A DNA stretch of 58,535 bases, the filler included, from Sphacelaria rigidula (Eukaryota), in NCBI GenBank assembly GCA_964200075.2. It is 5 parts of 5 records of this genome, joined end to end, with 100 filler letters (N's around TTAATTAATTAA, not from the genome) between each part and the next. Parts side by side here need not be neighbours in the genome. Positions count along the whole stretch, not along the records: positions 23,459 to 35,085 come from CAXNAA020004687.1; 4 more parts are not named here. One strand, given 5' to 3'. Position numbers and translations under genes: made by a program. The notes under the pieces are model-generated. The model worked only from the letters and a program-made list of their open reading frames with translations, ran no database searches and had not been told where the DNA came from. Shown piece by piece: positions 1 to 58,200 of the stretch. Position 1 is the first letter of the stretch, and each line of letters starts with the position of its first letter.

Positions 1-126
1 GATTGTTCGGCCCGAAGCATACTTGTTATCTTGCATTTGGATGACAGCCAACAATGAGATGCTTTATTCTGTGAATGGCCACTTCCAGAGACAGCCAAGG
101 CCCATACACTGCCTCATGGGTGTCTA
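1..126 (-). repeat. Interspersed ~135-bp repeat family, copy 1 (contig start)
   Basis: Reverse complement reads agacacccatgaggcagtgtat...aataaagc...ggctgtcatccaaatgcaagat...gcttcgggccgaacaatc; matches 34950-35085 and 39355-39487. Confidence 0.85.
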
Positions 127-2558
127 ACCCTGTGTGGTGATGGGGGTGATATTCAGGTCTCTTCATGTGTAACTTATCTTCGGTCGTCAATGTTAGGGTC
201 GTCAACACCCCGTGTAAAGCTGCTGTCAAGGTCATTACCTCCACTGAGCACCTGCAGGGATCAAATCGTCGACTATACACCACCACGCGCGATCACAGGG
301 ACATCCATCAAATTCGAAAAATGAGTCACCCACGGTCCCTCTCCTCCACAGGTGAAACCGACAGATCTCACGGGACAAGGAAAAAAAATGATACCGTAGA
401 GCAAATGGTTCAATGACACACACGGCTTTTGCAGCGCACATAGCATGTGACGAAAAAAACATCAGTCAGAAACATCTCGACACCGTCACAGGAGTAAGGG
501 AGAGCTCCATAACTTGGGCTGGCATTCCTCCTAGCCGACACAGCATGTCAAACACAATAAAAAACGTGTTTTTAGTCAATCTTTACCCCTAATGATGGAC
601 TCGTGCGACGAATATACCCATAGGAATAGTTGCAGTAATGCTGGAGACTCATTACAGGGGTACCTCGGCTTCACGGTTAGATGATCCTATCATCATGGAG
701 AATAGGGGAGGGGGGGGGGCGGGGTCGAGCCAGTTCTTGCACGAAGGAACCAATGTGAAACGTCGATGCAGACAGGTGCAGACATGGACTGTCACTTGGA
801 TGCTGTTAGTGTCACACCAACACACATTTTCACGCTGCTTGACAAACGTGTCCATCCACAGTCTTGTTTCTTGTCCAACTGTCTCAAGTTCATCAATTCC
901 TCCCCTTTCCCGGGACCAATCCGCAAGTCTCAAGGGATCAATTCATGTCGCCCCCAGTGCATGCCTGGCATCCGGTATCCCCGAATCAATCAGCTCTCCA
1001 GCATCGCGTCGACTCTTGTCAATTTTGTTTCAGCTGCCCAAGTACATGCAATTTTCACCCCAGAATTCAAATACTCATCCAAGGGCAGGTGGGAAAGACA
1101 TCCCTGGACCCCCCTTCCCCCCCCAGCAGCTTCTGATTTTATTTTATATTTCTCAAACGAGACAAGTGTTCATCAGCCTTTGGGGCGTCAGTTGGTCTGG
1201 AAGACGTTGTCGAAACAATGCATACGAGCCGTGCGTGCTTCGTTCGTGTGTTTCATTAATAAAATTGGATGGTGTGCAGTGGTTTGAGCAGTGTTGAGTG
1301 TTGTTTCCAATTAATTTATCAATAATAGTTCCTTCATTATTCAAGATGATTCAAGCAAGCAAGTAAAAATGATTACGCCAAATAAATTACGTAGATCCTC
1401 CGCCTACACCCCCTCAGCCACACTAGTGCGGCCGTTGCAGTGGTTGCTGCGGTCACAGACGGGTGAAGGGTTTGTGGTTTGTCGCAACTGCCCCCCTCTC
1501 CCGCCTCGATCTTTTGCCCCAACTAATTAGTCTCACCGCGTTTTTGCGAAAAAAACTTGGCTCTGCTTGTTCTGGTGTTAGGGTGCCGAACTCTAGCCAT
1601 CTGACTCACTTGGGTTTGCTAGAATTCACGATCAGGTTGCATCAAGCAATGTATCGAGCGGTTCATGTTCGCTGACATGGCGTACTTCAAGCCCAACACA
1701 AAACCAAGACTTGCCGAGACGGCGACTGTTTTGTTTTTTGCTGCTTGTGCTTGAGTCTGCTCTGCAAGTGAGGTGACTCTTGTCCCCCGTTCAACTCATT
1801 TTAAAACCAAGTAACTTGTGGTTGAGCTTGGTTGCATTGAGTATAGTACCGGAACCTGCCAGCCCGGACACGGTCCCAACAGTGCTAACCCCCCCCCCTC
1901 CCCCCCAATCGGCCCCAAATGGAAAAAAGTGAGTGTGGGTCCAGGGATATTTTTTTCACCCGCCCTTGACTCATCAGACAAAAAACGGATTTGCCGTGAC
2001 TCGAACTCTCAACCTGCCGCCTCAACCGGCTGAAGATGTACTAGTTATCCCAGCACAAGCCCACAACGACCGCGTGAGGTTGCACAACACTCTCGAGCGT
2101 CATTGTTACGTGGATAAGACTGGATAAATTTGTAGTTGCCCACAAATACCCCTCCGGTCGAATGTCGAGCAACTAGCCATCTTTCAACAACTATTGCAAC
2201 ACTTGTGCAACTATAACGGTGCCCCGACGACTTCTGGGCGAGACACCCGTGCGACTAGTAGACTGGAGACAATTTGCGGTTTCGCGTCACTAGTTGAATG
2301 TTAATAGCTTCCGGCCGTATGTAATCCTGGGATGAGAAACCCGTGCAACAACATGTGTAACAGCAAGTACAGCCACATAACTACCGAAATTAGACAACTG
2401 CCAACTACAGTTACTAGTTGTACAGCGTGGGGGGTGCCCACGCAGATGCCACAGACGACGGCGTGGTAAGTAATGTACCAACGGGACTGCCGCGGTACTC
2501 TTCAAGTTTTCCCTCCTCATCGAGCCTATACTAGTCTGCAATCGGTGAAACCTCCTGG

Positions 2559-6724: not shown

Positions 6725-6780
<56 letters not shown>

Positions 6781-9700
6781 CATGTACGCACGACACTTAC
6801 GCTCTCCGCCGTAGGGACTGACGGTGTTGTAAACATCGCCGCAGCGAGGGCAGTACAGCTTCACGGCCTCCTTCTTGGGTTCGTCATAAATCCCCACCTG
6901 ACCAGCGGGTCACATGCAGCAGTCAACAGCAAACGCTTACACGAAGGCTGCACAAACATGTACTGGGGGAGTCGGCGGCACAAAACCCTCCTTGTCTGTG
7001 GTGCATTCATGATCGTCACACATCTAGCGACCCACTTCGGACCCACACGTGGTCACGACATAGGGATGCGTCTAGGGCCGAGACTCTTGAGAGCATCGCG
7101 GCGCGCACAATGCGCCAAGTTGATCAGGGTTTTGGTGGGTCCGCCCCCCACGCTGCATTGGGCAAATCTTGCGAACGCTCGAGATACCTACCCCACATGA
7201 TTGCCGCGAGGCAGATTTGCCGAGCCTCCGGGTAATCGGCATACGAATCCGCTCGTGGGGTGAGTGTTGGATCAGGTTCCCTCCTTCATTCGAGATAACC
7301 AAAAGAGATAGACATGCGTACACGGTACGTACGTTCGTATGTCGTATTTCGTATGCGGCTGCAAAGAAAGGGTTCACGTTATGTCATGATCCAGTGCTTC
7401 TTGGGAATATTTTTGACGGGGTTTTTGGTTCTCAGGACAGATCTCCCAAAATTTGTGGAGAGTTTCTACTTTTACTCAAGCATGTGAGAGCAGATTTCTT
7501 CACCAGGTCGGGCAATAGATCAATCCAAGAATGACTATAGATTACTCGAAAACTCTGTTGTCGGATGTTTTTTCCACAACATTCTATTTGTTTTTGAGAA
7601 GTAAACAAAATATTTCGATTCCTCCCAGAATACGAAAAAACTGAGTTCCGTGTAAGAACATCCCTTCTTGCAATAGCAGACCGCTTCTGAAAGGACTTAT
7701 CCCTTTGTGAGGACCGGATCAGCTAACGAGTAGTCTGATGGTGGGGGAAGACTAACCTTGGAAGGGGCTTAGGAAACTCACGTTGCAAAAGCTCAGGAAC
7801 GTGATCTTCATACAATGACCGATTTCGTCAATATATATACATTATGTATTGAAACTAAAATGGGGCTGCTTGCGCGTTCCTACAAAGGTGATAAACAGTA
7901 CTATAACAGGGACGTGTATTAGAGTCCACAACCAGCCTCGTATGATATTCAATATCGTGGTATATTGATCAATCACGATACATCAAAAGTCATGCCCAAA
8001 CTCCTAAACGATGAGCGCCAGAGTTGGCCTGGTATGGAACATGATCTATGAATGTATCGATATAGGTTGACGACCGATGCCGCGATAGCCCGCACTCAGG
8101 AAAGGGACTATTATAAGGAGGCAAAGTTCAAATGCAAATCAAACTAACAAAAGCCGAGCACATCGAGCAGTTGGCAACTCCCAGGCTTGAGATTGTTCTT
8201 GCCAGTGTCGCTCTTTGAGGCGCTTCATGCTTCTGAAACAGCTATTATGCGCTACATGGTCAAATTCTTCGTGACAGTTGTGGGGCTGGTTTGAGTGGGG
8301 GGGGGGCTTGACCATTGACCACGCATCCCTTTCGAGACAGAGCACCGTTCCTACTCCTAATAGAGACACCTCCAACATTCCGGTGCTCATTACGTTTCTT
8401 CCGTACATAAAACCTTCTACATATCATATCCCCGTCTCGCTTCGCCGTCTGTGGCCACCATCTCCTAGCATAGCCATCGTTTTCTCCCTATTGTTTAATG
8501 CATCCAACGATTTCATGCCACCTCCATTCACGTGCCGTATTTCCCCCTTTAGCACGTGACTCTTCCTACGATAATCCCCCCAAACCAGCCCAAAACTGTC
8601 ACCAAGAAAACAGTCATACAGCGCCTCATGTTTGGTTTCAGGCTGCATGAAGCGCCTCATATGGGCGACATTGGCGAAATGAGCCCAAGGGTTGGAATTC
8701 CCAGCTGCTCGTTGTGCCCAGCTTTTTTCATGTCGACTCATGTGTAGATTTTGCCTTGCCAAACCCAGCCACTTTTTGTAGGAGGCTATCGTAGAAAGTG
8801 TCACGTCCCGTTTTTCCTTGTATAGTTCACCTTCTGCCACTATATAACTTCTGCTCTCTATAGTATTGCTTTGCCACAGAGGCAATTCTGTGCATCTACT
8901 TCCTCCTCCTCTCGACTACTGGTTGAGGGGGGGGGGGGCGTACTCGTTTGTTGCTTGCCCTAGTCGTGTGACCATTGACCACGCATCCCTTTCGAGACGG
9001 AGCACTGGGGCGGGGAGGCTAGAATAGCATCACTCTGATGACCGATGCACCTTGTTACCCGATACACCTGGGTACAATGGGGTGGGTGTAGGCATTGGAC
9101 ACGTTGAGGAAAAGAAACTGGCTACAAGTATTTGGGAGAGACGTACGAAGAAATGAATACCCTACAGGCAACATAAACGCCGGTTCTCGAGAAATCGCAA
9201 CACGGATGCTTCCAAAGGAAAACACGCAGGTAAACAAACAACAAAACAGGAGCAACTGATAGCATCTGGGCGCACGCATCAATGAAACGCGAACGCATTA
9301 AAAAGGATACGGCCAAGACAGCCAAGTACCGTCACACCACACCCAAAACGAAAAAGACGGTACCGAATCAAGTGGCCACACCAAGTGTAGGTCAGTCCTC
9401 CCGCCCCCACCTTTGTCGGCTTGGACGCTCTCGCCGACTTCAAAAGTGCGCCACAATTCCTGTCGCTACAATAAGATTATCGCCATTTTATATGGTATGC
9501 GGGAGAAGTGGTGGTTGATCCCTCCATACCGCTAGACGACAGACTCGTCCTGAGGAAGGGGAGGAGTTAGCAGTGATGACTAAAAATAACAATGAGTGGA
9601 GGGGGGGGGGGGTATCCCGCCATTTCGAAGTGCGTGTACCACCCCCTCCCTCAGGCCTCGCTCATATGAACAAACAAACTCTGGCCTCGAAGGGGTGGGT

Positions 9701-11541: not shown

Positions 11542-11630
11542 GGGGGGGGGGGGGGTACTCATTTGTTGCTTGCCTTAGTCGTTTGACCATTGACCCCGCA
11601 CCCCTTTCGAGAACGAGCAAGCACAGGGGG
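11542..11630 (-). repeat. Poly-C-tailed short structured element at contig end
   Basis: Homologous to 8927-9010. Confidence 0.85.
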
Positions 11631-18268: not shown

Positions 18269-19699
18269 GTGAGCGCGGGGGCGGGGCGTCGACTGCTTGC
18301 AGTGTTCGATCCGTTGGCATCATGCGTTCGCTTAAAATACGCTGAATCTGAATTGCAGTTGCTTCTCAAGAGGACAGGGGTGTGCTTTCCGGTACTGCGC
18401 GGTACTGTGCTATGCTGTATGGACATAAGTTTGTATTCTGATCCTTCTCAATAGCACTGCAATTCATCTCTTGGTCACAGTAGTGCACACCTCTTCGCCA
18501 CGTTTACTACTGTAGACCAATTGAGCCATTACATGGGCTGCATGCAAGCCCCACCTATTAACATCCGATGAACTCCCCCTTCCTTTCGAGGGCGCCGTGC
18601 GTTTCAGGCAGATGCGTATTGTTCATCCTCCGGTGGCATATCGTATGTTGGAAATGGTGCTAGCATGAAAAAAAACATTGAAGAATACCCTCGAAATATC
18701 TCTGGAGAAAAAAATCCGAATTTTGTTTTGATGACCACCATTACTACCACCATCACCTGCATATTGGTGTGCCAGCGGGGGGCAGATTCTGCGCGGTGCA
18801 TAGCAAGGGGTTTATCGTGATACCGCAGCTGTTGCACGTAGAAACAACGACGGGACAAATGTATTCATTCCTTGACCATCGCATCGGCCCTTCATTTCAG
18901 ACCCGCTATCGAAAAACGACAAAATCGTGCTGTGGAGTGCCGAGTCTGAGAGCCTACTTTTGACGTTCGAAATAAAAGTCTTGCTCGTCACGGAGGGAAC
19001 GTGGGTGGAGTCTTGTACACCAGCGAAATGTAGTGCTGGGGGAATGCATACTTTGTTTGGTATCCTTACCTTGAAAGCAACGCGGAGCACCAACGGGCTA
19101 ATTCCCCCTCGGGCGAGAGTCCTATGGGCGCCCGTCTTCCGAAGATCCTGCAGACGGGCCGGTTGCAAACGAGCAGAGGCACTTCTTGATATGACAATCA
19201 TTACATGTAGATACAGTTGGCACCGACTAATTCAAATGCAAAGAGTACTATTTCTTGTATGGGTGATTGTTTATGACAAGATACGAGCTGGGCCAACTGA
19301 CAGTGATTTTATGAAGGAAGAACGGCGATGCGATTGGTAGTTCGAAGAGTCAGGCGGTGAAATTTTGACACGACATTTTTATCAACCGGTGCAACCCTAT
19401 TGAGGGTGCAAAGGAAAGAAAAAAACATGAAGTTGTAGCGAGTTGAAGCTTCAGGAAAAACAGGGAAAATGCTATAACTCCGTGAAAAATTGATAGGAAC
19501 ACCTGCACCCCAACCAACATTTTGGGCACTGGCGTCCAGGACATTCTGGTCAATTTTCGGCCCTGAATACCTCAAATTGGGCGTCGCATTGCGCTTTTCG
19601 TTTGACATGGCTGCGCTGCTTCAATCCAAGTGATACAGGAGACTCCAGTTATGGAGATCATGAGATGCAGATTCTCCTTTTTTTTTCGTCCGTCGTTAA

Positions 19700-20596
19700 C
19701 CCTTGGGGAACCCTCCCCTCCCGTCCCCTGTCCAAACTCTGACAAAGAAGAAAAATATGGAAAAAGAAAATACCGACAACAACCATTTTTACGTTGGAAG
19801 GCCACGGAAGAATCCACCGACATACGTCATGCTCGCACCACAAATGTCGCTCCGGTGCGGTCGGGTTAGTTTTATCGAATGAGGGGACGTAACGGGTCAA
19901 GCATGTTCAACTTTGTGCACACGGCAAAAATCAGCACCGCGGCCTCTGAATTTCATGCAACAAGAATCAGTACCACCTGTATATTTTCTATCTATTTCTC
20001 AGTTCGGACGAATCATCGCCGGTTCGAATAAGCAAATCCACGATTTTTCGGGCCTGATTGCTCGAAAGAGACGAAAACAGTCGACCGCTGGTCAAGCAGA
20101 TCTCCACGCAGCTTTTGCGCCATTCCACGTGCCTGGACTGCGCGTACCTGGGTTGCGACGCTGAAAAACCAAGCCCAAGGATTGATTCGTACGGTACGAA
20201 TCAGTTACACGAAAATCAAGTAATTTTCGGACGAATCATTAATTCGTCCGACCCTTGCTATGTTTAGTCCCGTGTGGCACTGCGGCACATATTTATACAG
20301 GTGACGCATCCCACCGGAGTATTGTGCTGCAGTCCGGAGGCCGGAGGCCGTACCCGCCCAACACATTGGCAAGCGTGCTAAGCCACATCACAGAAACAAA
20401 GTAGTATGGCCGTGGAAGGTTTGAGGTGGGATACAATATTTACGCGATTCACCGCAAGTTTGAAGCGGTCGTGGGTCTGAAAAACACGCCTTGGGCAAAA
20501 TATTGGTCCTTGAAAGCTGCAAACGATCAACCATATGTTGTTGAAAAAGCAGCACCTCGAAATCAGCACATTTTTACAGTGCCAGTACCAAAAGAG
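19700..20596. mobile_element. piggyBac-like non-autonomous element
   Basis: TTAA duplication at 19696-99 and 20597-600; ends CCCTT.../...AAGAG; the homologous position in copy 2 of the host MITE is an empty site (tccgtcg-TTCA-ggtcatata). Confidence 0.8.
19998..20257. mobile_element. hAT-like MITE family copy nested in the piggyBac-like element
   Basis: Reverse-complement homologue of 41692-41949 over the full length. Confidence 0.8.
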
Positions 20597-21324
20597 TTAA
20601 GGTCATATATTGTGCAGTTTTTTTTCTTTCTTTCATTCAGTGGCGGTGCCGTGTTTTACCAGGTTTGGTCTGCTGTTCACAGTGATATGCTCAAGTCGCG
20701 CTGATTTGGGAAAATTGGGAGGTGTGGCGTGGAAAGCGAACACGGGATTCACTGCTGGCCCAGCCTGTAGTGTAGTGTACTTGTTTTGGTCCGTGTCCAC
20801 TCTATTCGCGTAGTTATCACTTGACACCCAAACCTCGATATGTCATCATTTCTTCCCGAGAGAGAGTAACGGCCACAAACAAACGTAGCGGGGGGCATGT
20901 GTCGGGACGGGGGAAAATGTGTAACGGGCGAACGCTCGGCACACACACAGCTATCGCAAGCTCCCTGAATCTACGTGAGCCCCATCCTTCCACCTTTGCT
21001 TTTTTCCTCGCACATTGAACCCCTCCCCTTCCTCGGGATGACTTCATGGTCTATCCCTCCATTAAAAAAGTAAAAAGTAAAATTCCGAATCCCTACCAAG
21101 GCCCCGTCCAACCGGTGTTCAACTAGGCCCCGGGGGAGGCCAGGACGTTATTCCATTGATTGCGCTCCCCGCTTACAGGATCAGGGAGGGCTGAGTGCGA
21201 CAGCAGCAGGAAGGCTGCGGCTTTTCTGCTTGTGCACGTACTCCGCACCACCGCAGGCTCCCTGCATTCCCTAGTGCAGCTCCGCCTACTGTTGATATTG
21301 CAGATGACTTCTTACAGTTGCCGT

Positions 21325-21496
21325 GTACGCCCAGCTTCTCGTATTCATCCCTAGTCGGGTACGAAGCGGACCATTTTCTCTCCGTCGTTTCCATCTTTGG
21401 TTATAATTATGTATGCCCAGCTTCTCGTATTCATCCCTAGTCGGGTACGAAGCGGGCCATTTTCTCTCCGTCGTTTCCATCTTTGGTTATATATAT
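21325..21496. repeat. Recent 86-bp tandem duplication
   Basis: Two near-identical units starting at 21325 and 21411. Confidence 0.95.
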
Positions 21497-22453
21497 ATGT
21501 ATACATATATGTCCGCTTACGTAGTCCTCCCTCTCTATGCTTTTTCGTTCTCGATACATTCGAGGCAGTACTGGCACGCTTTCCGAGCACGTTTTGATGC
21601 TGTTGTGCTGCATGTTACATGATCTCAACTCCGCTGTGCTCTGCCGCTGCTGCATTGCTGCTGTAGTGCCGTGCAACCATAATGTCTTTTCTCATCAGCG
21701 GCTGGACAGAGCAGTACCAAACAAAAAAAACTTGGTTCACGGTATCTTGCGCACAAGGTCTACGTTGTCTCTCATCTCTGCGCAGGTGTCCGGCGACGGT
21801 ATGCAGCTATCTTGACAGTTCATATATGAGAGGGGCAGGCAAGCAGGTCGCCAAGACTACGAAAAAAAAGGCGAAGATTTACCTCTTTTTTTATGTGTTC
21901 AATGAGCTCAGTTGTCGATATAGTATAGCTTTGGTCAGACAAAACCTGATTGCGGGGTGGGCGATCAACAACGATATGCGCGGGAACATATGCGAACAAC
22001 TGACCGATCAAAGCTATCAAAACTGTGTTTGAAACTCTCGGCCGCTGTAGGCCCGCCTACCGCTCAACCTAGGATTTTACGGGAGACACGCCTATTTCAA
22101 ATCCGGGAGACATTGCGATAAAACTGGGAACCCGCAACCCACTTTCCCCGTAATGCCCGAGACCTGTCAACCCGCGATATTGTTCCGAGATTACGTTCGC
22201 AGTCGAGAAGGTTTACCGTAGACGACCGCCAAGCGTTGCAGGGGCCTTTGTTTGTTTGTTGAGAACCTGTTTCTCAAGTATAGTGGACAATAGTTTACAC
22301 GCCGGACAGCTCGTGAGCTACGTGAAACAACGACGTAATCAAAGAGGACTCTCCGATCCGATGGTCCAAAAGCACGAGGTACCTGACCGCGGGGTCAGAG
22401 AAGCCGAAGCGCAAGCTTTGTGCTGCTCGGCCTGCTCGGCGTCCGGCGCTGTA

Positions 22454-23075
22454 CGAGCTGGGCCAGCAGTAAATCCTGCATTCGCTTTCCACACCACAAC
22501 TTCTCGAGTTTTCCAAATCAGCGCTACTTGAGCATATCGCTGTAAAGTGCAGACCAACCTGGTAACACACAGCACCGCTGCTGAATGAAGAATAATGATG
22601 AAAACAAATGTACTGCACGATATATGACCTGAACGACGGACGGCAAAAAAAAAAAGAGAATCTGTCGGGATTCGATCTCGAAACCTCCGTATTTGAAGTC
22701 TCTTCTACATCACTTGAATTAAACAGGCGCAGCCGTGTCACAGGAAAAGTGCGGCGCAAAGCCCAATTTAAGGTATTTTTGGCCGAAACTTTACCAGGAT
22801 GTCGTTGACGCGAGTGCCCGCATGTGTTGGGGCCTTGTCGTCGTTTTCATCAATTTTCAAGGAAGTCATAGCATTTTTCCTCCTTCTGCTGAAACTTCAA
22901 CTCGCTCTAACTTCATGTTTTTTTCCCTCTCCACCACTAATAGGGTTGCGCGGGTTGCTGACAAAACTGTCGTGTCAGAATTTCAGCGCCCAACTCTTCG
23001 AATTACCAGCGGCATCTCCACTCTTCGTTCAAAAATGGAAAAAATATTTACACAGAGTCCACATGAGCTAACTCG
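22454..23075. mobile_element. Tc1/mariner-like MITE (copy 2, uninterrupted, inverted relative to copy 1)
   Basis: Starts TA-CGAGCTGGGCCAGCAG; colinear reverse complement of 19284-19699 plus 20601-20767; the right terminus is degenerate. Confidence 0.75.
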
Positions 23076-23260
23076 TGATCCGGATCAATACACTAATAAT
23101 AAGTTATATTTAGGTAGGCTCATGAGTTGTCCAACGTGTGCAACAGCTGCACTGTACTGTGGGAGGTGGATGCTTTCATATTTTAACCATAGTATTGTGG
23201 TACCAGCTGGCCTCGGGTGGATACATATGGACATATTTGTGATTTTTTTCCCGAAGATTG

Positions 23261-23358
23261 CAAGGATCGGACAAATCAATGATTCGTCTGGAAATTACCC
23301 GGCTCTAGTGTAATTGATTCGAATCGTACGAATCAATCCCTAGGCTTTGTTTTCAGCG
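23261..23358. mobile_element. hAT-like MITE family copy truncated by contig end
   Basis: caaggatcggacaaatcaatgattcgtc...gtacgaatcaatccctaggctttgttttcagcg matches the start of 41692-41949. Confidence 0.7.
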
Positions 23359-23458: not shown

Positions 23459-23942
23459 GGTATGTGGGAGCGGGGCAGGGGAGCGGCCGGGGGGGCGGGG
23501 GAGGGTCGGGGGGGCGGGGGTGGGGGTGGGCGGGGGGCTGTGAGGGCATTCATCGGCCCCGTTAAGACGAAGAAAATGTCACAGATATCCACGTTTCGGA
23601 TAATGATCCTTTTGGACGAACTTTTGCCGTCGTGATCACGCGCGAAGTGAGTACTCGTACGGAAATCAAATCACTCGAGTTCAGCGTGGTATATATCACG
23701 TTCGCTTGACTAGAGTGTGTTTTATGAATCTAAATGGTCTCTTGATTCTAGTGTATCTAAAAAACTACTTGGTTGTAGTGTCGACTAGAAATAGATTTGT
23801 CGTGGATGACACCAACCACAACTACCTGGAATATGTGGTCGGATCAATCAAGTAATAGGTGCAGCGTGGAGCGGTTGAGTCGTTTTTTTTTCTTGACGCA
23901 CAGTGCACAGTTTTCTTCTTCAGGTGTCCGACCACAACTTTT

Positions 23943-24462
23943 CACACCGTGGATAATGGCAATATGTGGTCCATAGACGCAATAGACAAGAAATGTACTG
24001 GGTAAAGTATAATCCTATTGCAAGCAAGGTTACGGTTTGCTGTACTCATCATGGGGTTACCCGCGCCTGTGTCTAATTGCATACTTATTTCTCTCTCGCA
24101 ACTGCAATATATGCCGTGATCGAGGTATCGATGTCCATACACGAAGTGATGGGTCGAGACATGTCGATCGCCCACAAGGTAGTCGATATCTCAACCCAGA
24201 ACAGCGTGCCTCGTATCACGGGGGAAACTACCCTCCCCACGTGACCACCATACAAACAACTCTCATCACTCCAACAATCCTCACCCTCATCACTCCAGCG
24301 ACTCTCGCCATTCCAGGACCTCTCACCCTCGTGCGAACTTTGTACAGCGGAATGAGAGTCTTTTGACGGCCGACACAATAGTTGCAATGTGTCTATACTT
24401 TACCCAGTACACTTTTTGTCCACTGCATCTATTATCCATATATTGTCATTTTCCGGAGAGTG
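23943..24462. mobile_element. MITE with ~70-bp TIRs, hAT-like (CA...TG, 8-bp near-TSD)
   Basis: 23943-24011 is an imperfect inverted repeat of 24395-24462 (core tgtactgggtaaagtata); flanks caactttt / caattttt. Confidence 0.7.
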
Positions 24463-24470
24463 CAATTTTT

Positions 24471-24716
24471 CAAGGGTGGGACAAATCATCGAATCGTGGC
24501 TAGTTTGAATCACAAAATCTACAATCACTCTAGAGATAAATAGATGACAGTTGACGGCGGGTGAAAAACGTCTTCATGCATTTTTTTCGCTCTTCCACGT
24601 GGCTGGGGTGCGCGTACCTGAAAACAAAGGCCAAGGATTGATTGATTCGTACGGTACGAATCGGTTACATAAAAGCAAGTGATTTTCAGACGAATCATTG
24701 CTTCATTTGACTGTTG
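24471..24716. mobile_element. hAT-like MITE family copy
   Basis: caagggtgggacaaatca ... gattcgtacggtacgaatc ... ; flanks caattttt / catttttt (7/8 TSD match). Confidence 0.75.
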
Positions 24717-24812
24717 CATTTTTTCAACGCACGAGTGCAGTACGCGGTAGAGTAAAACGTTTCTCGACCGTCTTTCATTTTACATGATTGAATCGAATTG
24801 CTTCCCTTCCTT

Positions 24813-24905
24813 CCCCCCCCCCGGCGCTCCGTCTCGAAAGGGATGCGAGGTCAATGGTCTTATGACTATGGCATGCATGATCATGAGTACACCCCCCCCG
24901 CCCCC
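24813..24905 (+). repeat. Poly-C-tailed short structured element
   Basis: C-run + gcgctccgtctcgaaagggatgcgaggtcaatggtcttatgactatggcatgcatgatcatgagtac + C-run. Confidence 0.85.
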
Positions 24906-25294
24906 TTGCTGATTGCTTCGCCCGCATTCTTCAGTGCTGCGTTTTTTCTTTTTCCAGCCAATTTCTTCGTTTGGAAAACAAAACCGTCGCCGGATGCGGT
25001 AGTAGTCACTCGCGTGTTCCCAGGGATGTGGGTAGGGCATCAGGACGGATGTTCTGATGCGTGGGAATTGAAGAAGGCATACCTTGAGACTGAGAAAGAG
25101 TGCGGTTGTAGTGAGCCATATCCATCGTCAGAGTATGACGGTATTCCTGTGACGGAATGAACGGCGACCCGAGGTGACGGAGTATCGATTCCTCAAATAA
25201 TGTTCCGGGAATCGTTCGGAGGGAATGGTGGGTACCTTGACGTGGCTTTGTGACCGTGTTTTTGGACAAGAAATACTATTTCTTGGTGCTCGTG

Positions 25295-25330
<36 letters not shown>

Positions 25331-25336
25331 ACACAC

Positions 25337-25477
25337 CATCCCGCCCGGAAGAGTTGGTCGTGGACACACGCGTCCCGCCCGGAAGACATTGCACAATTAC
25401 GGAAGCATCCCGCCCGGAAGGGTTGGCCATGGACACACGCATCCCGCTCGGAAGACGTTGCACATCCACGGAAGCAT
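25337..25477. repeat. Higher-order minisatellite (A-B-A-B, 34/35-bp units)
   Basis: c(a/g)tcccgc(c/t)cggaag at 25337, 25371, 25406, 25440; intervening segments alternate; flanked by (CA)n. Confidence 0.9.
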
Positions 25478-25575
25478 ACACACACACACACTTTTTCTGT
25501 TCTGTTTTTTTTCCTTCATCTACTTGTTATTTTTGCCTTCCTGTCTTGTGTCTGTGGCGATCATTTATCGTGCAG

Positions 25576-28500
25576 GAATGGGTGGAGTACAACACACGAC
25601 AAATGTCTCGCATTTACCCCGGTGGAGCGAGATTAGATTCCTCCAACTACGACCCGCAACCAAGCTGGAACGTGGGCAGCCAGGTACACTGTGCAAGGAT
25701 GTACGTAAGCAGTCGATAAATCGATACTCCGATGTTCACTCGGCAGTAATGCATGCTCTATTGTCGCATCTTCTTTATTTCTTAATTTTTTCATATTACT
25801 TGTTCAACTTTTGGTTCAGTGCGAGTGAGTTTCAGCGATCAACCATGGACAAGAAGGAACGGACTTATACGCTTTTTGACTTGAGGCGTCGATAACTGTA
25901 CCGTTAAGATTATTGCTCGATTGTGACGTCATGGGAAAATGAGCACATGTGCATACAGTACATTGTTCTCGACGCCCACCCCCGCTTGTGCACTGTTCTG
26001 CTATGTTTTATTCCGTTCGATTTGGCTCTACTCATTTTCTATCGTGAACTCGGGTCGTGTTTGTTTCTCTTCTTCGGTATGGTGTACAATATAGTGTCAT
26101 TCCACTGTATCCGCCAGCGGGACATAATCACTGTCGAGGTGGATATCGATAGCATCACCGAATGAACACAGTCCCCGATAATCAAGCTTCGATCTTTAAC
26201 GACGAGGCATGGATGGAACCAAACATCACGAATACCATTACTCTCTAACGCAAGTTGCCTGTTCTTCGCTTTTCCCAGTAAACGCGTCCTGGAAATTACC
26301 GAAACACTATGTAGCCGGGATGTACAGTATACACGATCCCCATTTCCCCTCTCCCTACTCTTGCTGTACCCCCACTCGTTGAAGGTGCCCCCGCCCATTC
26401 ATTGTTTCATAGGCTGCTTGCTCGCCAACCTGTTGCGCATCACCCTCGTGCTCTGTGCTCGGGCTACTCCCTCTTGGGTGTTGAGGAGAGGGATATGGGC
26501 ATGATGAAAACGGGAGGTTGGGAGACTGCAAGAGGTAAAATATAGACCACACATCCCGGATTATGACGCATACACTGGCTTACGACCCACGGGACTATGA
26601 CACATGTACACTGGATTATGACACACACAACCGAGTATGACACATGTGCACCGGATTATAACACACGCACACTGCCCTCCTCTCTGCAACCCTCGCCCTC
26701 CCTGTCCCCCGGCCCCCGGTCCCCGGCCCCGCAACCATTTTTTGCGCAGATCGTGTCTTTGAATTACCAGACGGCGGGCAGTGCCATGCGTCTCAACGAT
26801 GGCAAGTTCAGAGACAATGGCGGGTGCGGATACCTGCTTAAGCCAGAAGTGCTTCGAAGACCCGAGGTCGGGTTCAACCCTGAGGTCGGGCCTTTTTCTT
26901 CTTCGCCCGTCACGCTGACTGTTCAGGTAATGATAACATCAAGCTGTCGGGAAACAATGTGGATGATAAATATAGTATACATTGGCTTTTTTGCGGTAGG
27001 CGAGAACAAAGCATAAAGTGTTTCTGTTTGCTCTTTTATTCCCCTTGCCAGCCAAACACCAATCTTGCTTGGGATGCAAGGTCAATTATCTTATGACTAC
27101 GGCATGCAAGGTCATGAGTCCCCCCCCCCCAACAGTGATGATTTGGTGCTGCCGTTGGAGGGAGTTATTCTTGCTTCCAGCCTTTCGTATTTATTTTAGT
27201 CATCTCCCAGTGTTTCGTTTTCGTATGTATTTAGGCATGCCACTGCGACCTCGATGGTCTACCTGGTGCACTAGCGACTGGTTAGGGGGAAAATTTGCGG
27301 AGTTGAATCCACGACGTATCCGGTATTTTCAGCAGAATCTAGTGTGCGCCGTTCAGGCCGCTTCTTTCTGCCAGCGGAAGTATGAGAGCTGAAAAAATTA
27401 CCTTTTCGGACCTTCTGCGTAGTCTTGCGCCTTAAAAAGAGGCCTAGGCGGGTTTTGACTTGGAATGCCTTGCTATACTTGTTGAGACGGTAAGTGTTTC
27501 TGAACTTGACCGGCCTCCGAGAGAGATGATCGGTCTACGAGAAAAATCAAGTTTGGCCAAAAAAGATACTGCTGCCACCGGTAAACGCGAACTTGTCCGA
27601 GAACCGTCTCAAGGAGTATAGAAATGTCTTGCTATACCCGTTGAAACGGGAAAGTTAATCTGGGTCTGACCGTTCGCAGAGAAAAATGATCGGTTTCCGA
27701 GAGAAACGCAAGTTTGGGCTAAAAATGCAAGTTTTGGCATCCTAGAACCGTCTGGAGGAGTACAGCAAGGCTTTCCCATGTGTCCAAATCCCCCCAGCGC
27801 TTTTGTAGGGCGTAAAACGAAGCAGCACCAGAGAAGGTCCAAAAAGGCAGTTTTGCAGCTTTGAAAATATATATTTTTGCCTGCGAATAGAACCGGCCTG
27901 AAAAAAAGCACGAACTCGCGGGTGGCAGATAATTAAAATCGACGCCGGAGTGAGTGCTGATCTGACCCGCGATACTAGCATGTCAGGGAAGGACAGGGAC
28001 AGGGAGGGATCGTGAATTGCTCCCTCGACACTACAAACACGGGATTTTACAAATTGGGGATGGGTTATTTTTATTGGGGATGAGAACCCGGAGAATTAAA
28101 ATCTTCGTATCCACACCAAATCTTCGAAGTATGCTTCCATTTCTTCACTTGCTGGTAGCTATTGACAACTACTGCACGCCACACAAATTTGGATTTCAAT
28201 AACCGAAATGTCGGGATCCTAGGTGAAAAACCAATTTTGGCGTCCGATCGGATCACCTAAATCCCCCCAAAATGGTTTTTCACCTGGGACCCTGACATTT
28301 CGATGATCGAAATCAAATTTGTATGGCGTATGGTAGTTGTCAATAGTTACCTGCAAGTGAAGAAATGGAACCATGTTTCCAAGATTTGGTGTGGACACGA
28401 AGAATTTTGAATTCTCCGGGTTTTCATCCCCAATAAATAATCCATCCCCAATTTGTAAAATCTCATGTTTACAGATACTCATCCAAAGGAGGGGGAGGTG

Positions 28501-30211
28501 GGGTGGGTTGAAAGCATGACGGAAATAGGTATTGCAAAAGGAAGGGAAAACCCCCGTTTCTTCCAGTGTGTGTGCGCGCGTGTGTTTCCACGTGTTCCTT
28601 TTTTTCTGGCCCGGGTTATTGTTGTGTTTGTCATCATCCAGCGCGGTTTTACATGTTCATGCACATGCTGGTCGGTGCTTTTGGCTGACTTCGTCTTGAA
28701 CCCTCACAAATGCCCATCCTCACTGCTTCCATCTCGGAAGGGATGCGTGGTCAACGATTAAATTACTTACGGTAAACAAAAAATAAGTACCCCCCCCCGC
28801 ACCCCCGAACCTCCTGCACCCCCGCACCCCCTCACGTCTTCCAATTTATGGACTACAATTTAAAATGTGAAATGTAGGTGATCAGCGCTAGGCAGTTGCC
28901 GAAGCCGGGTGGCGCACAAAAGGGGGAGATCATCGATCCTTACGTCATGCTCCAGCTGCACGGAGTACCGAAGGACTGCAAGAAGGCGAAGAGCACGAAG
29001 TACATCGATGACAACGGATTTAACCCGATCTGGAATACCACCAGCACTTTTGACGTGAGCAAATAGAATCGCACAAAGTGGTATCATTTTTTTTCTTCCT
29101 CTCGTTCTCATGGACACGTGAAGAAAAATTGTCTCATCCAGGTATAGACCTGAGCACTCGGAGAGACAGTTTCAGGTATAGCTCCGGTAGCAATATCAAC
29201 TGCCCCAAATGCGGCCGTCTGATTAGTCGAGGCGGCAAAGTACCTGATCATGAGTCTCAACCCAGCAGGTGTACCCGACTTTGTCTACTTTCCCCACTAG
29301 CTGTACCTGAACCTCGTGAAGTTCCGGAGAGTGGCGAGCGGAAAGTACCGGGAGTATGCCCAACAAATGTGACGATGAAGTCCGCACATACAGATGTCAT
29401 TTATTTTTGACCGAGCCTGTTTTCCGCAAGCGTTCCGTAGTATCTAAATGTGACGCCTACGGAGATTCGATTCAGTGCCCTTGTCGGCAACGAACTCCGT
29501 AGATACAAAAGAAGCAGCAGAGGCGGCTCTTTACCGCGCACTCTTCATCCACCTCGAATGCAAAGAACCACTTTTCTTCTCATTGCCTCTCGGTTGGTCG
29601 TGCCCGATTTGATTGGGCGATGGCGATGCGTTCACTGCGAGGGTTCGTGAGCGATCGATGGGATCGTCATCCGCTGCACTTGAAAAGCCGATTCAAGATG
29701 TCACCTACCCTCGTGGTGAAAGGGTTAACCCTCAGCCTGCGAGGGTAGTCCATCTGGATCATATACACCTTTTTCAAGTGAATACTGATGTCGACACAAC
29801 AGATGGCCTACTATCGCCGTTTATGGGTTAAGGTGTGTAATATTAGCAAAACCGTTTCTACTCGAGAAAGTGCGGTGGAAAAGAAAAGAAAAACATGTAA
29901 CAGATGGTCATTTTAGCAGGAATGACGTGGACATGAGGTACGACCTATTAGATCGGATTTTTTTTTTCCGTCACCCTTTTGCGATATATATATATATATA
30001 TATTTTAAAAGGCATGGCCTTCGACAGTACGTAAAGTTGACAACCTCAAATTGGTGGCAACCGAATATCATGTGACGCTTCCCCACTGTACCGTGCTGTG
30101 ATATGCTGTGATATGCTGTGCTGTACTGTACTGTATTGCACTATACTATGCTGCGCATGGCACTGTATGTGTGTTGAGATCGTGACGTGCAAAGTACGCC
30201 AATAGCGGTTC

Positions 30212-30271
<60 letters not shown>

Positions 30272-31393
30272 TTCCCTTTACCTCAAGACTCGTGAAATTT
30301 TCACGAAAGTTCGCCTGCGCGTCGTTAATGTGTCCTTTTTACACTTTTTAACGCAGCCACAGTGGGGGTGGTGCGGAAGCATGGGGCTATCACGAGCTTC
30401 CCCAATGCAGCTAGCATAAAACATATAGCAGCAGCGGAGTCCACGAGGAATTCGATTTTGAATCTTTTGCATCTGGAATATTGCCCCACTGGAGTCCTAG
30501 ATGTGAGGTTGTCCGATCAAGAGAGTCCTTCCGAATATTGAATTCTGGATTTGTTTCGTAGGGATGCGTTGGGGCTGGTAGACCGGGGTCTTGCAGCTTG
30601 GAGCTTGCCGGTGGTCATATACCTTGTTGGAGCACGTGCATCGCCCTTGTACGTGTGGTGGTCTTGCATGAGACGTTGGTTGACCTGTCCAGTGTGACTG
30701 GCGCTGTGGTTTGTGTGAGTAGGTCATGGGTGCCGTCACAATGGCCATTTGTGTACTGCACTCTACCTTCTTGCTTACTACAGCCACCACTCGCCACATG
30801 AACCAAGCGACTTCCAACAGGAAGACTAACCGTTTGATTTCATGAGTTGATGGGTTGATGAGAGTACATGATGAAGCATCAAATAGCTACAGCATGAAAT
30901 TTCGAAGGAGGATCGAGTGACGCCCAGTGACCAATATACACGATCTCTGTGAGGAATAGTTGGCGGTGACATATTCCACTTAAAATAGGGCGGCGGCAGG
31001 GTGTGAAGTGCGGGGGGAGGGCTACCACCATCAAGCGTCTAAACAAAAACATAACGAAAATGAAGATGCCTGGACGAAAATACTCGTACGAAATTCTGGA
31101 CTAAACTACGTGTACCGCTCATGGCCGGGTACGGGGGTACGTACGAAACGCGAGTACTGAAACAGACCTGAGTCCAAACCGCTGTCTTGGCCAGGGATAG
31201 GTTACATGAGGTCACAGTTCCGTATGGGTTCTACGAGAAACCTTTGGTCATGGTGAGCACGTGCGGTTTCTGTATCGTTGTGAAGCCGGAATAAATAACG
31301 CCAGCACTATCGAGGGTAGAAGAGTACAGCGGCAGCGTTTCCCCCCTTGTGTGCGGGTGACTAAATCCAGCAGACGTTTGAGCCACGAGCTTC

Positions 31394-31430
<37 letters not shown>

Positions 31431-31809
31431 CCGTCTCCTCGCCCCCCCCCCCCNNNNNNNNNNGACGTCCACTCGGCAGTGCTTCCCGCCTTTTGTGGGG
31501 TTCACTACTACCCCCAGTGCTTCTGGCTCTGTTTCTCTCTCCCCCCCCCCCCCCCCCCTCCGCTCGAAATGTGAACAGGTGGCGATGCCCGACCTCGCTT
31601 TGCTGTCTCTGACAGTCATGGATAAGGATGTCAATGCTGACGACTTCGTGGGCCACGCTGTACTACCCGTTCCGTCCCTTCGACAGGGCTATAGGTCTGT
31701 GAGGGTGTACAGTAAGAGCAGCACTACACACGGCGATTTCGAACACGCTTCGTTGCTCTGCCACTTCGCGGTAGAACCAAAGGCTCGTGCGAATCCCCCC
31801 GTTGGGTAG
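25576..31809 (+). CDS. PLC: Phosphoinositide-specific phospholipase C (Y-box end + C2 domain), 5'-truncated; exons 25576-25683, 26750-26926, 28878-29054, 31579-31809
   Basis: Four phase-0 GT-AG exons: [40 protein letters not shown]...[17 protein letters not shown] (PI-PLC Y box), VISARQLPK...DPYV...[10 protein letters not shown] (C2), [14 protein letters not shown]...[21 protein letters not shown]; stop TAG at 31807-31809. Confidence 0.95.
26555..26672. repeat. Degenerate ~20-bp minisatellite
   Basis: Repeated ggattatgacaca(tgt)acac-like units. Confidence 0.75.
27071..27130 (+). repeat. Poly-C-tailed short structured element, 5'-truncated
   Basis: gggatgcaaggtcaattatcttatgactacggcatgcaaggtcatgagt + C11. 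Confidence 0.8.
28029..28475. mobile_element. Fold-back MITE (~205-bp arms, ~27-nt loop), CACTA/CACTG-like left end, in a PLC intron
   Basis: 28034-28240 is a high-identity reverse complement of 28268-28470; the left end begins CACTACAAAC. Confidence 0.85.
28721..28798 (+). repeat. Poly-C-tailed short structured element, diverged
   Basis: tgcttccatctcggaagggatgcgtggtcaa...aagtac + C-run. Confidence 0.7.
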
Positions 31810-34800: not shown

Positions 34801-34949
34801 TTCTGTGTTCCGCCCAAAACTCGGCCGCTTATTTTCGTGGAGGCAGCCTGCTAATAGCCCGTGGATATGATCGTGTCGTGGCGGCGACAACACTCAAAGG
34901 GAGGACTCATACCTGGATCAGTCTTCCCCCCACCTCTCACCCAATGGTG

Positions 34950-35085
34950 AGACACCCATGAGGTAGTATATAAGCCGTTGCTGTCTTTGGAAGTGGCGAT
35001 ACCAGATAATAAAGCAACTCATTGGAGGCTGTCATCCGTATGCAAGATGATCAGTAGGCTTCGGGTCGAACAATCTTAGCAGGGT
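34950..35085 (+). repeat. Interspersed ~135-bp repeat family, copy 2 (contig end)
   Basis: Homologous to 1-126 and 39355-39487. Confidence 0.85.
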
Positions 35086-35185: not shown

Positions 35186-35428
35186 TGTATGATACACGTT
35201 TGTATATTTCTCGTTACCAAAGAAACAACCCCCCCTCCCCCCTCCCCCCGAAAAAATCGTAAAAATCGTAAAAATCGAAGAATTGAACATGAAAAACATC
35301 CAGCGCCTTATCAAACCATCAGAAGCAATGTATAGTCATCGTTTGAACCCATGGCGTGCGGGTGGTTATGTAGTATATCCATTGTATTTGTCTGCTTTTG
35401 ACTGAAAATAAAACGACATGATACACAG

Positions 35429-46700: not shown

Positions 46701-46812
46701 AACGGAGTCATACTCCGGTAGGGGTTGCATTTGGGCCCAAAATATTTCATCCGGGGGCTCCCAAAGTTGGGATTTACACAGGAACATGAATTAACAGCCG
46801 ATTCTCGAAAAT

Positions 46813-55215: not shown

Positions 55216-55246
<31 letters not shown>

Positions 55247-58200
55247 TTTTACAGGAGAAGGCGGTATATAGGTACGAGTCTACATTGTTGAGGGAACGAG
55301 GATCATGATCCATATCACGGTTGCTTTGGCGGCAAGGAGTTTCAAGGGAGTAATTGTACACCATGGCTTGTGCGATGGAGGAGGAAAGCCCATAGTTCGT
55401 GCATCTGATTTCGTCATTATCCGAGTATGCCCCCCACCCCCCCCCCCTCCCTTCCCACTCCTACAGGTAAGGGTTAGATATGAGAGTAGTGAAACAAACC
55501 AGGATCATGATCCAAATCACAGTCTCGTGGCGTGTGCACCGCCCGTGCCCCTCTCCCCGAGCCTTTTTATACGAACCGGATGGGAGCGGGGAGGGGGAGG
55601 GGGGGGGGACCCGCCCGCTTCCCATGGGCCTTTGAAGGGGGGTACAACTTCCTCCCACCTTGCGGCCCGCGTCAGGTACGAGTTGTTGTCTCACTACTCG
55701 TTTTCTCATACTGGTGGATCCTGGGACCCGCGAATATCGGTGAAACGAGGGGGGGGACGGTGGAGGAAGTTGACCGATTCAGTTTCTGGTATTCTCTTCG
55801 CAGTAGTAGATATGTAGCAATATACTGACTCGTTGAAACATGCGGGGGGAAAACTTAGTTCGTTCGTGCTCTCCACAAGTTTAGCTGTGAAGGGGTCAGC
55901 GGGGAGGCGAGAGATTGCACGGCATTAAGAGGTTTTGATGGTATTTAAGCACAGGGACGGGGCCAAACACCTCCGGAAGATCAGATTAGACTCGATGCTG
56001 CTGGCCAAGACTTCTTCCCCATAAGAAGAAAATAGCTGGCTTTTTTTTCGTCTCCCCTCGCCCAAATTGTTTTTCATCAAACAAACACTGTTTGGCGTTG
56101 GCAGGGTATTATTGGCATTTTTTTTACAAGCGTTCACAAAGTTACGCGTAGCGTTCGTTTCATTCAATTAATTTGCTGCATCCCACTTTTGTACCTAATG
56201 TCGTGGGGTCAAGTAGATATCACAGTCCTGGTGGGAAGCGGGCAAAGACATTTCGGTGTTGAAGCTCGTTTTCCCTTGGAGTTGGCTCTTTTTTTGTTAC
56301 TCCGAGAGTATAAATGGTTGCGTCCGTCCCTGAGAAGAGAAGAAGGTTATTCTATTTTACTTGCATACCCTTTTCGCGGTAGATATTTTGTACTTCATTA
56401 AACAGGTCGTGTGTATATACATGGTTTTCATCTCGCCCTCGCCCGGGGGTAAGATTTGATTTTTTTTCAGTGTACTACAACGATTTCGTTTAGCTTTGGA
56501 GTTATCCTTGTCGTCGTCGTCGTGTGTGTGTGTGCATGTGCACTTACTGTACGTGCGTGCATAATTTTTCTTTAAAAGTGGAACAACTTCACAGTAAGCT
56601 AAGACTGGGTTCAACTAGAGAGGAGGGCCGTTCCTAACAAAAATGTGCTTTTCCTCATCGCTCCCCACCCATCCACCCACCAGCTCCGGTGATTGTATGA
56701 ACGAAAAAAAAGTACGAGTACATGCATCCTCTTTTATTCTGTTTTTTTTTACTTCGTTCGGAAAAGCCGCCCTTGTCTTCTTTTTTCTGTAGCAAAATTT
56801 CCTCCAGAATGGCGACCCTTTGGACCCTGTTAGACGGTTGGTGTCAATTCCACTCTCGACGCATTGCGTGGTATCTAGGTAGGGCGTGGGGAGTAAATAG
56901 TTCGCATCGTGCTGATCAATCGGGGCTGTCGGGAAGTACAGTTAGAATTCCTGTAGACGCTGGGACTGGGTTGTCACCGGGGTTGAAGTAATATCTATAT
57001 ATATAAATGTGGACATGTATGTGTAGATCACTGTTGACTCTGTTGATTTTCAGGAGAATATCAACATGTAGCGACATCCTCATGCTTTGGGGGCCCATCC
57101 ACTGTATTACAAATATGTGCATGGTATTTTCGAGGAGACTTTTTTTTTCTGGAGTTTTCGGATGGATGGGTGGGTGAGTGGGAAGGGGGCGGGGGAGACT
57201 TGGGCGGAGCGGAGAACGCTTACTTTTTGAGGTAAAAAGAAGCAATGAAGTACAAGAAAAGAAATGCAGGAGGAGGTGAAGAATTGTTTTCAGCCAAATT
57301 GCTGTAAATGCGATGGGAGAATAGGGGTTGTATGAGCAGATGATCCATGGCGAGGGAAGGGAAGGGGTTGTACTCATTTGTTACTTGCGCCCTCCCCTAT
57401 CCCCTCGAGGGGGGGAGGTGGATTTGAAAGTCGTCTTGCCTTTTGTGTCTTCTTTAGCGTGTGATGTTTTGTGCTGTCTTTTTCGATTGATTTGCCCCGC
57501 GAGTTTTTGTACGTCTTTGACGCCCACCTAAACGCGCTCGTCGTTCTTCACCTTGAGAATATACGGGCATTTTTCCTTGTATGCGTTTTGTTTTATTGTA
57601 AACCAATAATAGCATATTTATTTTCAGGCACTGCAGGGAGGCATTTGCATTTGAAAAGTCGCTTGTTCAAGCATGGTGAGATGGATGAACTTACTTTTTT
57701 TCCCGCCAGGTTTCGGTGGGTGATACATGAGCGATTCGTTCGCTCCGATGTGCACGGATTGTGTTCCAGTGAAATGGCACATGACGCGAGGATCTTCCAC
57801 ATGACCGGGAGTGAGCTGTTCGCTCACATGCCCATCATCTTAGGAGCCTGTCGACAAAATGGTGCGATGAAGACGTCTCGTGCATGACCGTCGTGTTTAC
57901 CTCGGGCTACAAATCTCACAACACATGCGTCGTATTTTTTCTCCTCTATGCACACCTCCCACACTACGATACTCGTGGACGTCCTTGAAAGGGTCGAGGG
58001 AATTAATTTTTTCCGGCCGTTTCCGGTCCGTCCTTGTTGTAGGGGGATGAACCATGGATTGTATTTTCTTCAGCGGAGCAGCCTCGAAAAGCAATTACCA
58101 ACAACATACGTCCACGTGTTTTTTTTCGTTCTGCCCACTTGATGGTTCACACCGTTTGAGTCGCCTCCAGCAAAGAGACAAGCCGAGTCAAAAATTGTCT

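Follow-up and report, generated by a model that had tools for sequence, protein, structure and literature searches.

A high-copy, poly-C-tailed module in genes of Sphacelaria rigidula, most likely spread as a LINE-dependent retroposon

The module, its copies and their host genes

The stretch of DNA analysed here (the window) comprises 58,535 bases of Sphacelaria rigidula and consists of five contigs joined by N44-TTAATTAATTAA-N44 spacers. The contigs and the features of the repeat family located on them are given below.

Contig A: 1-11630
Contig B: 11731-23358
Contig C: 23459-35085
Contig D: 35186-46812
Contig E: 46913-58535
1..150, - strand: third copy of the long-form head, which follows a C-rich stretch and is interrupted at the contig start
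8297..8345, - strand: partial module of 39 nt that ends GGTCAAG and is joined directly to a C10 tail; CK2-beta intron, sense
8927..9016, - strand: whole copy in a CK2-beta intron, with the module at 8939-9005 (67 nt), a C12 tail at 8927-8938 and the 5' tract TCCCCGCCCCA at 9006-9016; sense
11542..11630, - strand: copy at the end of contig A, with the module at 11556-11620 and a C14 tail at 11542-11555
24813..24822, + strand: 5' C10 tract of the copy to which the earlier note was attached
24823..24891, + strand: short-form module of 69 nt, GGCGCTCC...GAGTACA, the copy closest to the genomic majority
24892..24905, + strand: C8-G-C5 tail of the 24823 module; public contigs diverge to unique sequence after the C run
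27058..27130, + strand: module of 62 nt whose 5' part is diverged or truncated, with a C11 tail; PLC intron 26927-28877, sense
28721..28798, + strand: module (69 nt, GGAA loop) with a C9 tail continued by C-rich (GCACCCCC)n-like sequence as far as ~28840; PLC intron 26927-28877, sense
34925..35085, + strand: second copy of the long-form head, which follows a C6 run and is interrupted at the contig end
39348..39672, + strand: long form, with a C7 run at 39348-39354, a 297-nt element at 39355-39651 and a decayed C-rich tail; SPT16 intron, sense
57355..57393, - strand: last ~27 nt of the module (GCGCAAGTAACAAATGAGTAC) with a C-rich tail; covariance model 8.9 bits, E 2.9

The full short copies consist of a module of 62-69 nt, (G)TGCTC ... 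GAGTAC(A/G), with a tail of 8-14 C, and a C tract lies directly 5' of the module in 3-4 of the seven copies. Pairwise identity among the copies is 62-88% (differences of 12-38%). The earlier note had placed seven copies on three unrelated contigs, and both points were borne out: nhmmer with a six-copy profile gave exactly seven hits in the window (E <= 1.5e-9), at 24825-24890 (+), 8940-9004 (-), 11555-11619 (-), 27058-27121 (+), 39586-39649 (+), 28726-28790 (+) and, for the partial copy, 8307-8343 (-), while three of the five separately joined contigs carry the seven. The next-best match in the window beyond these copies had E = 1.8. The same seven, and nothing else convincing, were obtained when a covariance model of the copies was run on the window with filters off, the six full copies scoring 69-91 bits and the partial copy 27 bits. 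Furthermore, the 30-mer core of the module, allowing up to 3 mismatches, matched the window 3 times as against 0 in 100 shuffles, and a 16-mer matched it 8 times, where shuffles averaged 0.92 matches and reached 5 at most; such counts, far above those of the shuffles, exclude chance for the module copies, though one of the eight 16-mer matches (26542, - strand) is a chance partial. The fragment that had been noticed near 57364-57393 was likewise recovered as a ~27-nt 3' end with a C-rich tail on the - strand. Ten ORFs around two long-form heads and the 57355 fragment gave no Pfam hit. In a metagenome scan, a 16-letter module motif was matched at 118 loci, none of which was a true copy by nhmmer; one of them, L040, was rejected as an unrelated repeated coding sequence. 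A scan of viral contigs for the module gave one match, by chance only.

The copies are associated with genes for PLC, CK2-beta and SPT16. PLC lies on the + strand, where Pfam PI-PLC-Y and C2 hits were obtained in + exons and full-length brown-algal PLCs were aligned to 25573-25686, 26744-26932, 28878-29060 and 31576-31806. Contigs of four public runs were mapped to contig C, namely X3, X4 and X5 (DNA) and X6 (spliced RNA). One X6 contig joins 26747-26924, 28876-29054 and 31579-32611 with GT...AG borders on the + strand, which indicates that this run holds spliced RNA. The copies at 27058 and 28721 are located inside the PLC GT-AG intron 26927-28877, far from both splice sites, and they are removed with this intron, as it is absent from the spliced contig. 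The first PLC exon located (25573) comes 670 nt downstream of the copy at 24823, and no exon upstream of 25573 was detected with four full-length brown-algal PLCs. Since ~640 PLC residues are still to be encoded upstream, this copy presumably also falls inside the PLC transcription unit. CK2-beta lies on the - strand, with profile positions 56-90 at ~11147-11251, 89-114 at ~9831-9908 and 113-139 at ~6817-6897, and the copies at 8939 and 8307 are located in the 2.9-kb intron between the latter two exons. The copy at 11556 lies on the same strand at the contig end, precedes by ~300 nt the first CK2-beta exon that was recovered, and is either intronic or 5' of the gene. For SPT16, exons were located on the + strand at 35405-35575, 36225-36365, 37498-37647, 39756-39812, 41293-41463 and 44491-44625, which places the copy at 39579 in intron 37648-39755. 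The sense orientation reported earlier was hence confirmed for all seven copies, five of which (8307 and 8939 in CK2-beta, 27058 and 28721 in PLC, 39579 in SPT16) lie in introns between located exons.

Other features of the window were also recorded. A separate repeat family of ~170 bp (72-79% identity) occurs at 24547-24717, 20077-20258, 41709-41867 (-) and 23274-23356 (-); its first copy lies ~100 nt upstream of the 24813 module, and its other copies are without the module. Tandem repeats are present at 21324-21502 (86-bp unit x2.1, 95% matches) and at 25330-25477 (34/69-bp unit), the latter just upstream of PLC exon 25573. An 821-codon open frame at 50034-52496 (+), in a stretch of 61% G+C and with R/S/G = 108/104/100 residues, matches no Pfam family and is probably a gene for a low-complexity protein.

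Abundance, boundaries and the two forms

The 388-base bin that holds the 24813-24905 copy had a summed contig depth of 1,405,506 in X3, 570,209 in X4, 136,298 in X5 and 93,371 in X6, values that are sums over contigs and not copy numbers. Nearby single-copy bins had depths of ~31-38 (X3), 11-16 (X4) and 3-7 (X5), and X6 had ~60-130 on PLC exons. This excess of ~10^4-fold over single-copy depth, together with seven copies in 58 kb, identifies the module as a very high-copy repeat, and it is among the most abundant sequences of the genome. At the joints 24899 and 24905, 275 and 225 X3 contigs, respectively, pass through the C run into unrelated sequence (agreement 0.36-0.41). Such departure of hundreds of contigs into mutually unrelated sequence establishes the C run as the 3' limit of the repeat. 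Again, the 3' flanks of the seven window copies have nothing in common (pairs z <= 1.3 versus shuffles); a 3' flank shared by the 24823 and 27058 copies was rejected at this same value, and a second partial unit behind the tails was rejected because no flank matches the 5' part of the module.

Variation among the genomic copies was observed at internal joints. At 24859, 136 X3 contigs switch to another variant of the 3' half, which is seen in the copies at 8939 and 11556, and at 24839, 387, 386, 138 and 83 contigs (X3 to X6) switch to an expanded-loop 5' variant like that at 39579. Head-to-tail dimers, detected as joints that go back by 72, were found in 16 (X3), 17 (X4) and 2 (X6) contigs. 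Moreover, a joint from 24899 to 34946 (depth 1691, X3) represents places elsewhere in the genome where the C tail is followed by ~10 letters and then the start of the long-form head, so that new copies often lie directly behind the tails of older ones. No empty site was present among the 15 joints listed, and the three sites on the PLC contig look occupied in the X3 and X4 samples, as their contigs end or start inside copies.

The long form was delimited by alignment of its three heads. The segment 39355-39487 matches 34950-35083 at 85% and 125-2 (reverse strand) at 83%, and all three aligned heads begin ...AGACACCCATGAGG after a C-rich run. On contig D, the head continues to a total of 297 nt (39355-39651), and the module, here with loop 1 expanded, makes up the final 73 nt (39579-39651). 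A continuation behind 35083 was found in 95, 97, 58 and 24 contigs (X3 to X6), and its consensus and that of the sequence before 24839 both match the copy on the SPT16 contig. The bin of the long-form head (34711-35085) reached a depth of 1,226,324 in X3. The module is therefore the 3' end of an abundant long form of ~300 nt, and it is also abundant as a short form of 65-69 nt. The idea that the long-form head is itself a diverged module was rejected, as no significant similarity was detected (z 0.3 to 2.1). The earlier note had named, as an outcome that would count against it, identification of the module as the terminus of a known larger DNA transposon; a terminus of a larger repeat of ~300 bp it is, but this repeat is no known DNA transposon.

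The module also appears to be carried inside another repeat. The partial copy at 8307-8345 sits between inverted arms of ~145 bp, 8149-8293 and 8581-8726 (74% identity), and the 5' flank of this copy (8297..8345) also recurs across the genome (23 X5 contigs, joint 24822). The composite of these inverted arms and the partial module appears to be repeated in the genome as well.

Mode of spread

The absence of MITE, Helitron and classical SINE hallmarks, which had been claimed from the sequence, was substantiated. The only terminal inverted repeat is GTGCTC versus GAGTAC of the short form (6 bp, one mismatch), and the long form has none, so that neither form qualifies as a MITE or a TIR DNA transposon. 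A true MITE-like element of ~410 bp with inverted ends of ~90 bp is located at 28044-28452, within the PLC intron that also holds two module copies, and likewise has a high copy number (depth 270,480 and 305,913 in X3), with opposite-strand joints 28085/28424 in the public contigs. Helitrons are characterized by a 5' TC, a 3' CTRR, a 3' subterminal hairpin and insertion between A and T; the ends observed here are GTGCTC or AGACACCC and GAGTAC(C)n, with C runs as flanks. As for SINEs, the family is short, non-coding, very high-copy and dispersed with unique flanks. A strict SINE head was not found: ARAGORN detected no tRNA anywhere in the window, no tRNA-, 5S- or 7SL-like match was obtained for the long form, and the short form has no head. 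Within the element, neither an ORF nor a match to a known RNA family was found.

The family anatomy agrees with the dispersed, mobile-type repeat with a 3' C run, and often a 5' C tract, that had been described. A constant 3' module with a homopolymer, unique flanks, differing bodies, a copy of only ~27 nt, a C-rich upstream junction, a candidate duplication, dimers, and the lack of inverted termini and of coding capacity together point to a non-autonomous retroposon that is copied from its 3' end. The tail is present in seven of the seven copies (C8-C14, decayed in the long form). At the 11556 copy, the 5' flank CCCCCTGTGC (11621-11630) recurs right after the tail and forms a candidate target-site duplication, which is the clear case among the seven; a second is possible at the 27058 copy, and the remaining ones are ambiguous because both flanks are C runs. 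The CCCCCTGTGC duplication could alternatively be the stub of a tandem unit, as the element itself begins GTGC.

On balance, we favor retroposition in trans by a LINE reverse transcriptase, at slightly better than an even chance, and the family would then consist of SINE-like retroposons that depend on a LINE and carry a poly-C tail. The reverse transcriptase, of the non-LTR (LINE) type, would recognize the 3' module in trans. Target-primed reverse transcription would start at a (C)n:(G)n target, where the C tail would pair with the G run of the bottom strand after this run had been nicked. Such priming on G runs is proposed by analogy with poly-A tails and T-rich nicks, and it would leave C-rich sequence on both sides of a copy with occasional 5' truncation. 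Here we infer an RNA intermediate, a partner LINE, the G-run priming and the cause of the orientation bias described below. No reverse transcriptase, and no LINE carrying the 3' module, was seen in the window, where the 40 ORFs and the larger ORFs that were scanned gave no reverse-transcriptase domain.

The 5' extent varies while the 3' end stays the same (~27, 62, 65-69 in four copies, and 297 nt), which speaks for retroposition. Other features count against it. The four copies of 65-69 nt share nearly the same 5' end and represent a discrete short form, whereas LINE copying typically yields a graded series of truncations. Furthermore, a promoter would not fit into an element of 68 nt, and the long form offers no tRNA-, 5S- or 7SL-like head to supply one. 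The discrete 68-nt form, the lack of a promoter-like head and the scarcity of clear duplications led us to keep in play a repeat that moves, or spreads by recombination, at the DNA level with no RNA intermediate. This would be an unconventional non-autonomous DNA element or a minisatellite-like unit scattered out of tandem arrays, targeted to or bounded by (C)n:(G)n. The discrete 5' end of the short form fits such a unit, as do the C tracts on both sides of 3-4 of the seven short copies and of all three long-form heads, the existence of head-to-tail dimers, and the travel of the module inside other repeats, exemplified by the partial 8307 copy between inverted arms. Nevertheless, the imperfect 6-mer of the short form would be its sole terminal inverted repeat, and the element is asymmetric, with a constant 3' end bearing a homopolymer as against a variable 5' extent. 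No tandem array of the unit was found in the window (long arrays are not visible in short contigs), and no duplication of fixed length occurs at the flanks of the copies. Spread at the DNA level is accordingly judged unlikely, though it is the rival that survives best.

Less probable still is the explanation that the short copies are solo 3' ends that remained after deletions in the ~300-bp long form or in an even longer element, with no independent short form. Such an origin is suggested by the module forming the last 73 nt of the long form, and by the abundance of the head, which is very roughly half that of the module (a crude depth comparison of bins 24623-25010 and 34711-35085). However, the 5' ends of the four best short copies all fall within 4 nt, and the sequences upstream of these copies bear no relation to the body of the long form. 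In addition, the short copies have a GAAA or GGAA loop as against the expanded loop of the long form and its 387 X3 relatives, which indicates that the short copies and the long form are different lineages.

Retroposition of the module was also compared with known systems. In stringent-type SINE/LINE pairs, such as eel UnaL2/UnaSINE1 and those with CR1/L2/RTE-type tails, the LINE reverse transcriptase recognizes a 3' stem-loop and a short repeat tail. The present family resembles the UnaL2/UnaSINE1-type pairs in that a conserved 3' module of ~70 nt with predicted hairpins and a simple tail is common to differing 5' bodies, and it differs in its tail, which is (C)n and not a short microsatellite or poly-A. 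L1 and Alu spread by target-primed reverse transcription with a homopolymer tail into a homopolymer-rich target, and an antisense intron bias has been reported for L1. Similar to these, the module has a 3' homopolymer with which its upstream flank or candidate duplication also starts, and 5'-truncated copies and dimers occur. Unlike L1/Alu, its homopolymer is C and not A, its duplications are unclear in six of seven copies, and its intron bias is sense. Introner elements are high-copy short elements in the genes of algae and other protists. The module family is likewise high-copy, short and on the gene sense strand in an aquatic protist; unlike introners, its copies have no splice sites and are not whole introns, as two copies and the MITE share a 1.95-kb GT-AG intron that is spliced as a unit.

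The closest description is found in another brown alga. According to the accessible part of PMC12477816, the families found in greatest numbers in Ectocarpus are LINEs together with short non-autonomous elements whose 3' end is shared with RTE-X LINEs, and the introns are rich in the short non-autonomous elements. As described in that part (PMC12477816), those LINE-dependent elements are, like the module family, short, non-coding, intronic and of the most abundant repeat class, with a conserved 3' end and no pol III head identified. The tails and orientation of the Ectocarpus families are not described there. Distinctive of the module family are a C homopolymer tail, a short form of only ~68 nt and no partner LINE in sight; the likeness is one of description and not of compared sequences. 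Neither the module repeat nor poly-C tails are mentioned in the portions of the Phaeoexplorer preprint and PMC12477816 that were accessible, and literature searches for poly-C-tailed retrotransposons and for brown-algal SINEs returned nothing relevant. The family may already be catalogued in the repeat libraries that supplement the brown-alga papers.

Orientation, predicted fold and implications

The occurrence of seven of seven copies in the sense orientation has a two-sided p of 0.016 against a 50:50 null. Its background was estimated from nine verified introns, of which 14,369 nt were left after element copies had been masked. On the sense strand of this sequence C (3383) is not commoner than G (3498), while C runs outnumber G runs by 64:32 at lengths of at least 4, by 12:5 at lengths of at least 6 and by 5:1 at lengths of at least 8. 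Insertion at C tracts in a fixed orientation would thereby yield 67-83% sense copies, and the probability of seven out of seven would be roughly 0.06-0.27. Because element-free C homopolymers are 2-5 times commoner on the sense strand of introns, the seven sense copies are inseparable from a C-tract target preference, and the sense bias is real in this sample yet indistinguishable from such a C-tract effect. The earlier note had reserved the case that C-richness accounts for the bias; C homopolymers may indeed explain it, whereas plain C content is not raised. Sense-biased intron C tracts and a preference for them as targets would by themselves produce sense copies. Conversely, the decayed tails of old copies could be the source of many C tracts.

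Homopolymers of at least 7 in the window number 43 of C or G and 66 of A or T, and most of the long C/G ones have no module alongside. Long C homopolymers without the module include C33 at 31395-31427, C12 at 31442-31453, C18 at 31541-31558, C29 at 55217-45 and C20 at 11743-62. The C18 at 31541 precedes the acceptor site of the last PLC exon by 20 nt.

The details of stems and loops were found to be as first described, with loop 1 being GAAA in four copies, GGAA at 28740 and expanded at 39600, and loop 2 varying as ACAC, AAAC and TTAT. The RNA-like conserved fold that had been proposed from them was not supported. The terminal stem, hairpin 1 and hairpin 2 were evaluated in six copies, in which 76.0% of the cells pair as against 75.4 +/- 0.9% after shuffling, a value equalled or exceeded in 205 of 500 shuffles. 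One pair showed a double change as against 0.7 expected, and the covariation score was 0.125 as against 0.131 in shuffles, six related sequences giving this comparison low power and MAFFT misaligning the expanded loop of one copy. RNAalifold gave -4.57 kcal/mol for the six copies with a covariation term of +0.61, which is penalizing. The z-values of folding energy were +0.6, -0.3, -1.6, +0.9, -1.2 and -0.5 for the sense strand and +1.0, +0.1, +1.0, +0.8 and -1.6 for the antisense strand. An Rfam search of the whole window, as the note had advised, gave no match at the gathering score. A permissive Rfam search gave mir-878 as the best hit of two short copies (18.8 bits versus a threshold of 80, E 0.086) and two chance-level snoRNA hits for the long form at 39320-39690 (E 2.3 and 8.6). 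These results represent an absence of support for a structured RNA and not its disproof. The stem of hairpin 1 is kept in the expanded-loop lineage, where a U-G pair is replaced by C-G, which is a small point in favor of constraint.

A functional structured RNA or a cis-acting intronic element with selected orientation, such as a processing or splicing signal, a GNRA hairpin with a poly-C protein site or an intron small RNA, is thus very improbable: the placement of all copies on the host sense strand, the predicted hairpin 1 in most copies, the retention of its stem in the abundant variant with a loop of 8-9 nt, and several G-U pairs that are workable on the sense strand only would suit it, but covariation is no better than in shuffles, folding is ordinary and alike on both strands, no Rfam family, snoRNA box or ribozyme is matched, the copies differ by 12-38% and lie at arbitrary spots in large introns beside other transposons, the two PLC copies leave with their intron in the spliced contig, and the implied copy number is that of a transposon and not of a gene-specific signal. 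The family accordingly gives no evidence of a new functional RNA.

For work on genomes, the family has practical consequences. Together with C tracts, it breaks short-read assembly, as contig A starts in a long-form head (1) and ends just 5' of a module (11630), contig C ends in a long-form head (35085) and contig B starts at a C20 (11731). Since it occupies many introns, it belongs in the repeat library used for masking and annotating Sphacelariales genomes.

For the biology of brown algae, retroposition of the module permits a broader proposal, which we advance tentatively and regard as possible. A brown-algal retroposon family and its implied LINE partner would home to (C)n tracts by means of a poly-C tail primed on nicked G runs; as these tracts are sense-biased in introns, copies in genes would be almost only in the sense orientation, and the decaying tails would possibly be a source of the abundant C/G homopolymers. 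If the poly-C tail primes insertion, its tail and target specificity would be ones undescribed for non-LTR retroposons in the literature searched. For LINEs, an antisense bias in introns is usually discussed, which is the opposite of what is seen in this family. If the proposal is true, it would provide a simple mechanical reason for a strong sense bias of a transposon in introns.
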